Virus genome (UHGV): UHGV-1550197
Reading direction: 5' to 3' (one strand)
Length of the DNA: 10,180 nt
Origin: a virus
The notes below the pieces were generated by a model that did not search any database, was not told where the DNA came from, and saw only the letters and a program-made list of their open reading frames with translations. Positions within the stretch are counted from its first letter, which is position 1, and each line of letters begins with the position of its first letter. Made by a program: the position numbers and the translations under genes. This document shows, piece by piece, positions 3,075 through 10,132 of the stretch.

Positions 3075-3655
3075 TATTCACCACAGAATTCGTTGATATT
3101 TTCCCAGTTTAACTTATTCAAGTTTTTCTTAGGAACATTAAACACTTCAATACCTGCATTTCGCAGAATATCATCCCAACCAGGTTTATTTTTGTCGTAT
3201 GTTTCACAATAAACTAGCTTTTTAATACCAGATTGAGCTATCGCTTTTGCGCAATCTGGACAAGGAGAAAGTGTTACATACATAGTAGCACCTTCAATAG
3301 AAGAACCATTTCGTGCAGCAAACAAAATTGCATTTAGTTCAGCATGAATTTCATTTTTAGATGACCATTCCGAGTGAGCACTACGATGTTCTTTCGCCAA
3401 AACAAAACGATCAGTTGAACCAAATGATACGCATTCAGGCTTATGACCTTGAATGATAGTGTGTTTAGGCTTATTCAACAACCAACCTTGCTCAGCAGCA
3501 TAATCACAACAGTTCACACCCCCTGCGGGGGAACCATTATACCCAGTAGAAATAATACGTCCATTCTTTTCAATTACTGCTCCTACCTTCCAGGAGCAAC
3601 ATTTTGATTCCTGTGATACTAAATATGCAATTTGAAGTACTGTACTCGCTTTCAT
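3074..3655 (-). CDS. cd: dCMP deaminase (deoxycytidylate deaminase), 193 aa
   Basis: Translation contains the cytidine/dCMP deaminase zinc motifs H-A-E (HAELNAI) and S-P-C-P-D-C and matches T4 Cd (193 aa) as I remember it. Confidence 0.95.
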   Translation of the reverse strand: MKASTVLQIAYLVSQESKCCSWKVGAVIEKNGRIISTGYNGSPAGGVNCCDYAAEQGWLLNKPKHTIIQGHKPECVSFGSTDRFVLAKEHRSAHSEWSSKNEIHAELNAILFAARNGSSIEGATMYVTLSPCPDCAKAIAQSGIKKLVYCETYDKNKPGWDDILRNAGIEVFNVPKKNLNKLNWENINEFCGE

Positions 3656-3990
3656 TTCATAATCACCAGATAAGCAGATTTAGCAGTTTCAACACGATAA
3701 ATTTCGTGACGAAGTTTAGTTATACTTTTAACAACAGAAGTAATTATATTCAGCCCATCTTTAAAGCGGTTTTTCTTATCAATAAAAACTGCGCCAGTCA
3801 TCTTTTTGTGAAGCTCAATTGGATACTTCGTCACAATAATAGCATCATACACAGAAGGATGAATACTATTCACCAGAGTATCATTCATTAAAGTTATTCT
3901 AATGAACTGTGCTGTTTCAGAATCAAGCGCTCTATGATCGCCAGTATCATTTTCAAGACAATTATCAATTATATCAGTTAAATTCATCAT
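3652..3990 (-). CDS. hypothetical protein (112 aa), cd.x-type small early ORF
   Basis: ATG 3988-3990; its stop overlaps the cd start (ATGA). Product not recognised. Confidence 0.65.
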   Translation of the reverse strand: MMNLTDIIDNCLENDTGDHRALDSETAQFIRITLMNDTLVNSIHPSVYDAIIVTKYPIELHKKMTGAVFIDKKNRFKDGLNIITSVVKSITKLRHEIYRVETAKSAYLVIMK

Positions 3991-4223
3991 AGTACGCCAT
4001 ACACCCTTTGTGCTTCAACTAATCCATCAAAATCTAGTTTAAGATGCGATATTTGATCGCCATCACCTGGATTCACAATTACTAATACTGAACGAGGAGT
4101 TTCAGTAATAACACGAACCGATGTTTCAGGAAATCGTTCAGAAACTTTATTTACTAATTCCTGTGCAAATAGTTTAACTTTTTCTTGGAATTCTTTAGCA
4201 GTAATTGGTTTTTCACTTAGCAT
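3987..4223 (-). CDS. hypothetical protein (78 aa)
   Basis: ATG 4221-4223; its stop overlaps the start of the downstream ORF (ATGA at 3987-3990). Product not recognised. Confidence 0.6.
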   Translation of the reverse strand: MLSEKPITAKEFQEKVKLFAQELVNKVSERFPETSVRVITETPRSVLVIVNPGDGDQISHLKLDFDGLVEAQRVYGVL

Positions 4224-4744
4224 GTTGATCCCAGCTCCTTACTTTCAACGTTTTTAACTAATTTGACAGAAACTAATTCAGCATCTTGAGTAATCATTAC
4301 CGGACCTTCTTCATACTCTTCAAGATATTCTAGAGCTTTCTTTTTAGCTTCTTCCTTCGTATCAGTTTGAGCATAGATATAAAACATACAACCAGTAATA
4401 CCTACTACTTTCCACTTAATTTCTTTATCAGTTTTAATTTCAAATTTACTGACGGAATCATCTTTTTGAACTTCTTCGAAAAAAGAATATTCTAACATAT
4501 AAGCAATTGAAAATAGCGGGCTAACTTTATAGGATTCACCCATTACATCAACAGCTTTATACCAACAATCATCAATTTCACGTTTAATGCTAATAACATT
4601 TTTCGCAGGATCTATTTTTACTTTAAATGAATTTTCCCCAATAAACTGGGCAATTCGTTTATTAGCCCCGCAAGTTTCATTAAAAATATCTTTATATCCA
4701 GCTTTAAAGCGATAAACCTTATCTTCTTCAAACCATTCGCTCAT
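4217..4744 (-). CDS. hypothetical protein (175 aa), acidic C-terminal half
   Basis: ATG 4742-4744 with GAGGA 7 nt upstream; it has its own candidate promoter in the 62-nt gap upstream. Product not recognised. Confidence 0.7.
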   Translation of the reverse strand: MSEWFEEDKVYRFKAGYKDIFNETCGANKRIAQFIGENSFKVKIDPAKNVISIKREIDDCWYKAVDVMGESYKVSPLFSIAYMLEYSFFEEVQKDDSVSKFEIKTDKEIKWKVVGITGCMFYIYAQTDTKEEAKKKALEYLEEYEEGPVMITQDAELVSVKLVKNVESKELGSTC

Positions 4745-4774
4745 TTCAATTTCCTCATTTGTTTTGGTAGAGCT

Positions 4775-4803
4775 ATAATATCACAACTCTACCGTAAAGT
4801 AAA
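4775..4803 (-). promoter_or_regulatory. candidate T4-early-type sigma70 promoter for the 175-aa ORF
   Basis: Minus strand GTTTACT (-35 TTTACT at 4798-4803), 17-nt spacer ending TGA, TATTAT (-10 at 4775-4780). Inverted repeat GGTAGAG / CTCTACC (4787-4793 / 4766-4772) brackets the -10. Confidence 0.4.
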
Positions 4804-4806
4804 CTA

Positions 4807-5082
4807 TTAAATTGCTTTGAATTCTGATGTCTGTGATTCAAAGCGAATGTCGCCTTTGATAACTAGCTCAGCATCAAGACCAAATACAACAATGATATGC
4901 GCGGAACCTGGATACAACGTAATGGCAATAGAATCCACCTGGTCTGGAAGCAAAGCGTTCAATACATGAGTCACTTGAGCGTGGATTCGAAGTTCAGCTG
5001 CGTTATCAAGTTTTTCAAACATATTATTAGCGATAATTTGGCTAAACACTACTTCTACGATTTTAGAGTAAGTCGGAAACAT
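4807..5082 (-). CDS. hypothetical protein (91 aa from ATG; track ORF begins at an upstream TTG)
   Basis: Track start at 5110-5112 is TTG. The internal ATG at 5080-5082 has GAGG 5 nt upstream and sits 2 nt after the stop of the upstream 66-aa ORF. Product not recognised. Confidence 0.55.
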   Translation of the reverse strand: MFPTYSKIVEVVFSQIIANNMFEKLDNAAELRIHAQVTHVLNALLPDQVDSIAITLYPGSAHIIVVFGLDAELVIKGDIRFESQTSEFKAI

Positions 5083-5084
5083 AT

Positions 5085-5285
5085 TTACCTCACATAATTT
5101 TCTTCGAGCCAATCAATAACATCCAAAGCGTTATCAAAAGTTGCGCCATCTACTTTGTCTTCTGTTTCATAATCAAGAACATCTAGGCCTACTCTTCCGT
5201 CAACAATAGGCCATAGACAAAATAGATATTTCTTTTCTTTTTCAATTTTATCACAAAGACGATAAATCTTTTCTAGGTTATTCAT
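5085..5285 (-). CDS. hypothetical protein (66 aa), acidic
   Basis: ATG 5283-5285, 2 nt after the stop of the upstream ORF; weak RBS. Supported mainly by tight operon packing. Confidence 0.5.
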   Translation of the reverse strand: MNNLEKIYRLCDKIEKEKKYLFCLWPIVDGRVGLDVLDYETEDKVDGATFDNALDVIDWLEENYVR

Positions 5286-5474
5286 ACGTTTTCCATGGTA
5301 AAGGCAGTTTAGTTTTCTTTACTACTAGTTCAACATCAGGATTCTTTTCTCTTAATTTAAGGCATTCCTCCCATGCTCTATTTTCACTAGTAAATACACA
5401 AAATTGCCCATTACTAGTACCAACTAAACCGCTATTTACAATAACAATAGCCCAAGTTTCATGGTGCCAAGCCA

Positions 5475-5475
<1 letters not shown>
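5278..5475 (-). CDS. hypothetical protein (65 aa from the ATG overlapping the pseT stop; alternative start at 5505 gives 75 aa)
   Basis: ATG 5473-5475 overlaps the pseT stop (TAATG) and has GGGAG 7 nt upstream; the longer track ORF would start 30 nt inside pseT. Confidence 0.5.
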
Positions 5476-6675
<1,200 letters not shown>

Positions 6676-6679
<4 letters not shown>

Positions 6680-9698: not shown

Positions 9699-9728
9699 AA
9701 TAAAATGGGCCTTGCGGCCCACTCCTTA
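9699..9728 (-). promoter_or_regulatory. GNRA-tetraloop hairpin between the nrdB stop and the denA start: terminator-like and/or split ribosome-binding site
   Basis: Minus strand: UAA-GGAG-U-GGGCC-GCAA-GGCCC-AUUUUAUU-AUG. AAGGAG lies 5' of the hairpin and the denA AUG 8 nt 3' of it; with the hairpin folded the effective SD-AUG spacing is about 9 nt. Confidence 0.45.
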
Positions 9729-10132
9729 AAAGTATTTTTTAAAACTCATCATAACTTTATCATCAACATCATTATCAATCTGTGCAACAAGGTAAGATGA
9801 CAATTCTACTTCTTGTGGCGCAGATTGAACATTATCAGAATTAAGATATTCACGAATCCAAGGATATGGATGTTTAACCGGAGCATCGGTAATTGGGCAT
9901 GGAAGACCACACTGCTTCATACGAGATACAGTTAAGTAATCAATAAAGCTCCACATGCTATTTGTATTTAATCCAGGAACATCTCCATCTTTAAATAAAT
10001 GAACTGCCCAATCTTTTTCTTGGCGGTTAACTTCCATGAAAATATCAACTGCTTCTTGTTCACACTCTTGAGCAATTTTAACCCATTCATCGCCATCAGT
10101 ACCGGATTGAAGCTGACGAATAATATATTGGG
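9726..10132 (-). CDS. nrdB: ribonucleotide reductase small subunit, C-terminal part only (5' end cut off by the adapter / contig end)
   Basis: Open minus-strand frame from the adapter junction to the stop at 9726-9728 (...AQYIIRQLQSGTDGDEWVKIAQECEQEAVDIFMEVNRQEKDW...SFKKYF). Assigned mainly by T4 synteny (nrdB-denA-rnlA) and an acidic C-terminal tail; I do not recall the T4 NrdB sequence well enough for a direct match. Confidence 0.65.

Follow-up and report, generated by a model that had tools for sequence, protein, structure and literature searches.

Why does the virus genome UHGV-1550197 carry six small open reading frames (ORFs) between pseT and cd, where phage T4 carries five? We analyzed a 10,180-nucleotide stretch of this genome (hereafter the window; coordinates count from its first letter) in which a first-pass annotation had described six minus-strand ORFs of 112, 78, 175, 91, 66 and 65 amino acids (aa) in positions 3652–5475. 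All six were found there as described. That annotation gave T4 five ORFs at this position, cd.1 to cd.5, and suggested that the sixth may point to a gained or a split gene. We find instead that the additional gene, the 175-aa ORF designated ORF175, very probably encodes a member of the GoF family of proteins with a predicted LSm-like fold, and that its absence from T4 is likely to reflect loss from T4 rather than gain in this phage.

The T4 annotation does list cd.1 to cd.5 at this locus, and alignment of the block against T4 pairs five of the window ORFs one to one with them at high identity (88.5–100% at the amino acid level, NP_049829–NP_049833; Table 1), in the same order, on the same strand and with the same lengths and overlaps between cd and pseT. 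The single surplus gene is ORF175; in T4, cd.3 and cd.2 have nothing between them. By BLAST the window is collinear with T4 except for three gaps. In one of these, positions 4223–4749 face only 9 bp in T4, an insertion or deletion (indel) of 527 bp whose flanks are 94–98% identical. In T4 the promoter, hairpin, GAGGA ribosome-binding site and ATG are all retained, and the sequence passes directly into cd.2 (ATG-TTG-CTA-AGT...), whereas in the window that ATG is separated from the cd.2 ATG by the whole 175-codon ORF. The sixth gene therefore reflects a whole-gene indel and not a split gene.

The six ORFs are real genes rather than chance ORFs, since the 1824-bp block matches 499 phage-collection records at 90–99% DNA identity, each ORF has a PHROG family of its own (E 1e-37 to 1e-55), and ORF175 has a ratio of non-synonymous to synonymous substitution (dN/dS) of 0.11–0.24 among eight Tequatrovirus alleles. 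The matching records are nearly all Tequatrovirus-type coliphages, Shigella phages and Yersinia phages, the closest being Yersinia phage PYps5T at 98.7%. ORF175 is under purifying selection. By tblastn it is present in 303 records, about 60% of the 499 block-bearing Tequatrovirus-type records, always at amino acid identities of at least 90% and at full length in all but two. It corresponds to RB32ORF214c and is the same gene as ar1_225 of AR1 and Shfl2p218 (95–100% identity), and it is annotated almost everywhere as 'hypothetical'. Shortened forms do exist, of 85 aa in phage PaulHMueller and as 95–114-aa fragments in metagenomic data, and they could be taken to mean that the sixth ORF is a split or frameshifted T4 gene or a decaying, non-functional remnant. 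However, each of T4 cd.1 to cd.5 has a full-length counterpart in the window with nothing split, and ORF175 has no DNA counterpart of any kind in T4, is intact in 301 of the 303 records and shows the constraint given above, so that this explanation is scarcely credible.

The block varies between related phages, as had been anticipated: RB32 lacks cd.4 and cd.5, T2 lacks ORF175 and cd.4, and PaulHMueller has the shortened ORF175. In a spread sample of records we observed four haplotypes, namely the six-gene form, an RB32-type that keeps ORF175 with cd.4 and cd.5 deleted, a T4-type without ORF175, and a T2-type without ORF175 and cd.4 that retains a 30-aa remnant of cd.5. The two polymorphisms therefore assort independently. 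The records of this sample that lack ORF175 all cover the same 71–72% (or 52–53%) of the query. This common coverage, together with the junction that T4 and T2 have in common, GAGGAAAACAAAATG(T/C)TGCTAAGTG, points to one deletion allele that spread.

To which side the change belongs is answered by more distant phages. At a relaxed threshold Dhakavirus gives weak ORF175 matches that share its map position; there JS98 (orf212) and QL01 (gp219) carry a 184-aa ORF exactly between cd.3 and cd.2 (30% identity to ORF175 by BLASTP, E 3e-11 and 5e-13). A profile search adds versions of 175–182 aa; VR7 gp232 (Gaprivervirus) and a 177-aa protein of a 173-kb metagenomic contig both have a DUF7355 gene upstream and a DUF7320 gene downstream. 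The order cd.3(DUF7355)–17x/18x-aa ORF–cd.2(DUF7320)–cd.1–cd thus recurs in JS98, QL01, VR7 and the 173-kb contig, and the 5' untranslated region, Shine-Dalgarno (SD) sequence and ATG of ORF175 are conserved across these orthologues. The spacer variant AACAAA of T4 and T2 recurs upstream of the orthologues in VR7 and the metagenomic contig. The JS98, QL01 and VR7 proteins are positional orthologues of ORF175 (about 26–30% identity, 175–184 aa, same neighbors) that differ from it by a shorter linker or different insertions and by a diverged C-terminal tail. Because the slot is filled by orthologues in three further Tevenvirinae lineages, T4 and T2 would be the ones that carry a deletion, and we consider loss of ORF175 in T4 the likely event. 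Of the earlier suggestion of a gain or a split gene, the extra gene stands and neither the gain nor the split does.

The T4/T2 deletion fused the ribosome-binding site and ATG of ORF175 to cd.2. In ORF175-bearing phages cd.2 has its own ribosome-binding site, AAGGAG, inside the 3' end of ORF175, and this site is gone in T4. The window cd.2 product is identical to T4 Cd.2 except at the N-terminus. At this point the T4 reference has one extra G, reading AAAGGAATTCC where the window, RB32 and T2 read AAAGAATTCC (positions 5262–5277 of the T4 stretch L001, NC_000866, facing window positions 4190–4223). As a result, the ORF that begins at the SD-adjacent ATG of the T4 reference is only 17 codons long, and its cd.2 is annotated in a different frame, with a GTG start and another N-terminus, whereas T2 reads in frame (ATG-CTG-CTA-AGT). 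The extra G is a frameshift peculiar to T4 or else an error of sequencing.

ORF-sized presence or absence between closely related phages is also what the seg/mob homing endonucleases exhibit, and the genome family in which this indel lies is rich in them. BASEL genomes MZ501096, MZ501098 and MZ501113 indeed annotate ORF175 as a 'putative homing endonuclease'. That ORF175 is a free-standing homing endonuclease or another selfish mobile insertion is nevertheless very improbable. Pfam, NCBIfam and PHROGs searches with ORF175 and 23 relatives detected no GIY-YIG, HNH, LAGLIDADG, PD-(D/E)xK or other nuclease domain, and the N-terminal domain is GoF-like, as described below. Moreover, unlike the seg/mob genes, ORF175 has syntenic orthologues across genera; it has diverged in place to about 30% identity while its neighbors were conserved, which argues for vertical descent and not for homing. 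The BASEL annotators gave the same label to an unrelated 100-aa ORF next to pseT, which suggests that it was applied to indels in general.

GoF (ComC-alpha), Frd.2 and MotB.1 constitute a Tevenvirinae family with an LSm-like fold (Kim et al. 2025, PMC12152347). The N-terminal halves of these proteins are predicted five-stranded bent beta-sheets, LSm-like with SH3 topology, which flexible linkers connect to unrelated C-terminal domains; in the PDB these halves lie closest to FeoA and to metal-dependent regulators, among them IdeR and SloR, and Hfq is also related (PMC12152347). We compared the ORF175 family (24 sequences) by hhalign with an alignment of the GoF proteins of T4, G3F6, VR26, IME281, a Mosigvirus and an Aeromonas phage. 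The two families align with 97.3% probability (E 1.7e-11), aa 4–95 of ORF175 on aa 4–92 of GoF, with common motifs at the start (F-E-x-x-K-x-Y-x-F) and at the end (E-x-x-F-F-[DE]-E-V). The PHROG matches run in both directions. ORF175 matches phrog_3710 (4e-55), phrog_5804, which holds the Dhakavirus orthologues (8e-11), phrog_622 (1.3e-4) and a goF-named family (0.005); T4 GoF matches phrog_622 (5e-38) and phrog_3710 (8e-12), T4 Frd.2 matches the same two (4e-46 and 1.5e-4), and MotB.1 matches phrog_622 (1.3e-3). When a hidden Markov model of the ORF175 family was run against all ORFs in 64 kb of T4, goF was the sole match (E 1.2e-4).

Membership of ORF175 in the GoF family is thus very probable, and on these profile comparisons ORF175 joins the GoF/Frd.2/MotB.1 'LSm-like fold' family as its fourth paralogue, absent from T4. 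Because goF is also present in the ORF175-carrying phages AR1, G3F6, HP3 and PhiZZ30, ORF175 is an additional paralogue and not a relocated goF. The likeness extends beyond the homologous N-terminal domain of about 90 aa to an acidic composition, an arrangement of N-terminal domain, linker and variable C-terminal domain, a non-essential status, a restriction to T4-like phages, and, as predicted for ORF175 from its promoter sequence, early expression. ORF175 differs from GoF in its locus (cd–pseT versus 39–motB), its length (175 aa versus 141 aa) and its absence from T4, and its C-terminal domain, of beta-beta-alpha-beta-beta type, is unrelated to the short GoF tail. The gene has long been sequenced as a hypothetical ORF; what is new is its placement in the LSm-like GoF family, and its relatives may already sit in unnamed branches of the published tree (PMC12152347). 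We also note that in Aeromonas phage AsFcp_1 (stretch L013) a GoF-like 175-aa ORF (359–886) is preceded by an overlapping 117-aa ORF (13–366) with a similar N-terminal pattern (..Q.RF.SE..KK.Y...), which suggests possible tandem GoF-family paralogues.

Structure prediction was of low confidence. Two AlphaFold2 models, made from 14 and 24 sequences, reached a predicted local distance difference test (pLDDT) score of only 56.6 and 58.1, and both of these low-confidence models agree on five strands within aa 10–92 (10–13, 40–45, 50–55, 60–65 and 89–92) and on a C-terminal beta-beta-alpha-beta-beta domain (strands 111–117 and 120–127, helix 130–144, strands 149–153 and 156–161). The linker between the two domains (about aa 96–108) is of low confidence, variable in length and poorly conserved. 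In hhalign the C-terminal domain does not align to GoF, and it has no PHROG or Pfam match outside its own family. ORF175 as a whole has no Pfam, NCBIfam, PADLOC or PDB sequence relative. A Foldseek search of the models against the PDB returned nothing below E 0.3, and the BFVD matches are only uncharacterized proteins of T4-like and other large myoviruses. Resemblances to AcrIF9 and Dmd were not usable as evidence. In a single-sequence HMMER search against 1.8 billion representative proteins ORF175 matched close copies and one 1345-aa protein; the latter, matched in 17 stretches, is a perfect tandem repeat of Ig-like domains (Big_13) over which weak matches sum, and we discarded it as an artefact. 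A 114-aa protein on a 644-bp contig (P0004), in which an N-terminal fragment of gp59 is joined to ORF175 aa 5–51, was treated as an assembly chimera.

Selection acts unevenly on the two halves of ORF175. Summed over allele pairs, the N-terminal 95 codons show 139 non-synonymous versus 136 synonymous differences, whereas the 80 codons of aa 96–175 show 26 versus 112. In PaulHMueller (stretch L003, 2483–2740) a natural in-frame deletion of aa 15–104, lying between the short direct repeats TTTAAAGCTGGAT and ATTAAAACTGAT, fuses residues 1–14 to residues 105–175, so that the 85-aa product keeps the C-terminal domain alone. The uneven constraint and this allele both indicate that the C-terminal ~70 aa form a unit that is autonomous and important.

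ORF175 alone among the six was said to have a candidate promoter of its own, and the site upstream of it is the sole minus-strand promoter-like site inside the block. A consensus match by itself proves nothing, since our promoter scan found 10 sites overall compared with 14.8 in shuffled sequences, fewer than expected by chance. The promoter is supported rather by its near-identity to the T4 stretch named Pe133295 (a misc_feature), by its fit to the T4/PST early consensus TTTACW-N17-TAYWAT (PMC4122927), and by the conservation of its -35 and -10 elements in JS98, QL01, VR7 and the metagenomic lineage. Its spacer and -10 element are overlapped by a 12-bp hairpin with a folding energy of -21 kcal/mol (z -3.9). 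Across 7 sequences 89% of the hairpin cells are paired, compared with 31–63% when the partners are slid; between Tequatrovirus and Dhakavirus pairs 30–47 and 31–46 change on both sides and pair 32–45 on one side, and VR7 has a different hairpin in the spacer. With few independent lineages, the support from conservation is modest.

The promoter-early stem-loop (PeSL) cassettes of T4-type phages (Arbiol 2010; Comeau 2014, PMC4122927) likewise combine a TTTACW-N17-TAYWAT early promoter with a hairpin and an SD sequence before a variable ORF in a plastic region. At the ORF175 locus, in contrast, the hairpin covers part of the promoter, namely spacer and -10 element, and does not lie upstream of it. 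A second PeSL on the other side would permit excision or integration as a mini-circle; we searched downstream of ORF175 for a second copy of the promoter or hairpin and found none, and the T4 deletion has its end-points at two start codons, not at PeSLs. Excision mediated by PeSLs is therefore unsupported.

What might ORF175 do? GoF is abundant early in infection, and its D25Y variant allows T4 growth on certain rho alleles and stabilizes gene 41 mRNA post-transcriptionally, whereas wild type GoF and MotB.1 have little effect; goF and frd.2, like motB.1, are dispensable in the laboratory (PMC12152347). We propose, tentatively, that ORF175 would be transcribed in the first minutes of infection from its Pe133295-type promoter and translated from the strong GAGGA site, and translational coupling would let cd.2 and cd.1 be expressed from that message too. 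On the model of GoF the protein might then act on RNA or on RNA-handling host proteins, at the level of mRNA stability or of Rho-dependent or RNase-dependent events. The beta-barrel would serve as a binding module and the C-terminal domain as a specific effector or partner-binding module, and any advantage from ORF175 would be conditional, with T4 and T2 able to do without it in their hosts. Such an RNA-level function is possible, though we would not call it probable.

Several observations weigh against reading ORF175 as an early GoF-type protein that acts on RNA. Its early transcription is a prediction from the DNA sequence, and when the ORF175 family was compared by hhalign with single sequences of Frd.2 or MotB.1 there was no match. 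In the hhalign alignment to GoF as read, GoF residues D25 and G84, whose mutation produces the phenotype, fall opposite T24 and S87 of ORF175. Finally, it is the GoF-like N-terminal domain that evolves faster. A different role is that of an anti-defense or antitoxin-type protein whose C-terminal alpha/beta domain neutralizes a host immunity protein, in which case the presence or absence of ORF175 would mirror which hosts carry that immunity system. The first-pass annotation had named host takeover or anti-defense as typical of such small early proteins, which is a generality; searches with the block proteins found no PADLOC, NCBIfam or solved-structure relative. We regard this role as unlikely, somewhat more so than the RNA-level function proposed above, and the two could coincide. 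A more specific idea, which we consider a long shot, is that ORF175 stands apart in function as a fourth GoF-family branch, in which the barrel targets RNA or an RNA-handling host complex and the C-terminal domain is active, e.g. by inhibiting a host RNase, toxin or RNA-targeting defense. If this were true, ORF175-positive, ORF175-negative and C-terminal-only alleles would explain host-range differences among near-identical T-even phages, and there would be a first handle on the action of wild type GoF-family proteins.

ORF175 and the other features of the block are collected in Table 1.

Table 1. Coordinates of the genes, protein domains and upstream elements of the pseT–cd block in the window.
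Feature	Coordinates	Strand	Basis
cd.1 orthologue, 112 aa	3652..3990	-	96.4% aa identity to T4 Cd.1; phrog_2063, E 8e-50
cd.2 orthologue, 78 aa	3987..4223	-	Pfam DUF7320, E 3e-33; 88.5% to T4 Cd.2
ORF175, acidic 20-kDa two-domain protein, 175 aa	4217..4744	-	isoelectric point (pI) 4.9; absent from T4
ORF175 C-terminal domain, ~aa 109–175, orphan predicted beta-beta-alpha-beta-beta, more constrained half	4220..4420	-	constraint, prediction
ORF175 N-terminal domain, aa 1–95, probable GoF-type (LSm/SH3-like beta-barrel family)	4460..4744	-	profile comparison
12-bp hairpin GGTAGAGTTGTG/ATAT/TATAGCTCTACC	4766..4793	-	overlaps promoter spacer and -10 element
Putative early (sigma-70-type) promoter, T4 Pe133295 counterpart	4775..4803	-	TTTACT-17 nt-TGaTATTAT
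cd.3 orthologue, 91 aa from ATG	4807..5082	-	DUF7355, E 1e-32; 97.8% to T4 Cd.3
cd.4 orthologue, 66 aa	5085..5285	-	97.0% to T4 Cd.4; phrog_2360
cd.5 orthologue, 65 aa	5278..5475	-	Pfam T4_Y13H; 100% to T4 Cd.5 over 75 aa

Every gene of the window is on the minus strand, and the gene order follows that of the T4 early region: 30.7–30.9, rIII, 31, 31.1, 31.2, cd and the block, followed by pseT, pseT.1–3, alc, rnlA, denA and the end of nrdB. Within the block, the head-to-tail packing with ATGA or TAATG overlaps that the first-pass annotation described is mostly present, with ATGA overlaps at cd/cd.1 and cd.1/cd.2 and a TAATG overlap at pseT/cd.5. It does not apply to cd.5/cd.4, which overlap by 8 nucleotides (nt; ATGAATAA), to ORF175/cd.2, which overlap by 7 nt (ATGCTAA), or to cd.4 and cd.3, which do not overlap and have 2 nt between them. 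The sole true intergenic gap of the block is the 62 nt at 4745–4806, upstream of ORF175. For cd.3 an upstream TTG is an alternative start that gives 101 aa. T4 annotates cd.5 in a 75-aa form, which would start at 5505; we prefer the 65-aa form because a GGAG lies 7 nt upstream of its ATG at 5475, the T4_Y13H model spans aa 2–62 of this form, and a metagenomic orthologue starts at the pseT stop.

The same annotation had called none of the six proteins recognizable, which does not hold for cd.2, cd.3 and cd.5, with their Pfam families, or for ORF175 with its GoF relationship. DUF7320, DUF7355 and T4_Y13H were the only families found when all six proteins were searched against Pfam, NCBIfam, PADLOC and PDB sequences. 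The Pfam search with the cd.1 orthologue was without a match, and cd.4 orthologues carry a precomputed Pfam assignment (PF26883, Phage_T4_Y13G). A DinI-like hint for cd.2 (E 0.037, 14.8 bits against a cut-off of 24.2) was rejected, its real family being DUF7320. Literature searches on the cd.x gene names returned no relevant paper, and these names are absent from PMC8076793. Taken as a whole, the block is best explained, and with moderate confidence, as an ordinary non-essential early-gene cluster of Tevenvirinae, cd.5–cd.4–cd.3–X–cd.2–cd.1, in its ancestral six-gene form. The products of cd.1 to cd.5 can be classed simply as conserved, dispensable early proteins.

The cd.4–cd.5 end of the block is plastic as well. 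RB32 runs from cd.3 straight to pseT (stretch L008, 2931–2996), T2 has only the cd.5 remnant there (L007, 2410–2505), and VR7 has a 241-aa ORF on the opposite strand between pseT and cd.4 (L017, 1393–2118). By the evidence of RB32 and T2, cd.4 and cd.5 are dispensable in nature. The cd.3 orthologue of phage BW-1 (L018, 1156–1431, equivalent to window 4807–5082) is labeled 'toxin' in GenBank OR125554, with the basis unstated; this DUF7355 protein is slightly hydrophobic (grand average of hydropathy +0.41), and no family, PADLOC or PDB match supports or explains the label.

Differences from T4 also occur outside the block. The pseT gene (5475–6380) is only 91.7% identical to T4 PseT, compared with 100% for the adjoining cd.5 and 99.5% for cd, presumably a case of local mosaicism from recombination. 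Between pseT and pseT.1 lies a second gene that T4 lacks, a 100-aa minus-strand ORF (6377–6679; 6378–6672 have no T4 counterpart) of the RB32ORF217c type (phrog_2364), basic with a pI of 8.6. It has no Pfam match above the cut-off (GapR-like only at E 0.01), its BASEL label of 'putative homing endonuclease' is without domain support, and T2 has a different ORF, of 82 aa, in this slot. A 154-bp stretch between 30.9 and rIII (1462–1615), relatively GC-rich at about 0.42, is likewise absent from T4; it has no Rfam or tRNA match and folds in an ordinary way (z 0.07). The ORF at 9726–10037 is the last exon of nrdB, and positions 10038–10132 are 97% identical to the T4 nrdB interval annotated as a group I intron. 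The nrdB intron of T4 thus appears to be present in this phage too, and the incomplete intron piece in the window has no Rfam match. Scanning the whole window against Rfam and for tRNA genes gave no significant match.

T4 is the annotation reference for T-even phages, and genes that T4 has lost therefore stay 'hypothetical' or mislabeled in hundreds of genomes, as with the 'putative homing endonuclease' label on ORF175 and, at this same locus, the 'toxin' label on cd.3. With ORF175 the GoF/Frd.2/MotB.1 family, described in 2025, would grow from three paralogues to four, and T4 would represent a reduced state at the cd–pseT locus. Nature provides an allelic series of ORF175, comprising the full gene, a precise deletion and the C-terminal domain only, which offers a practical route to a phenotype.

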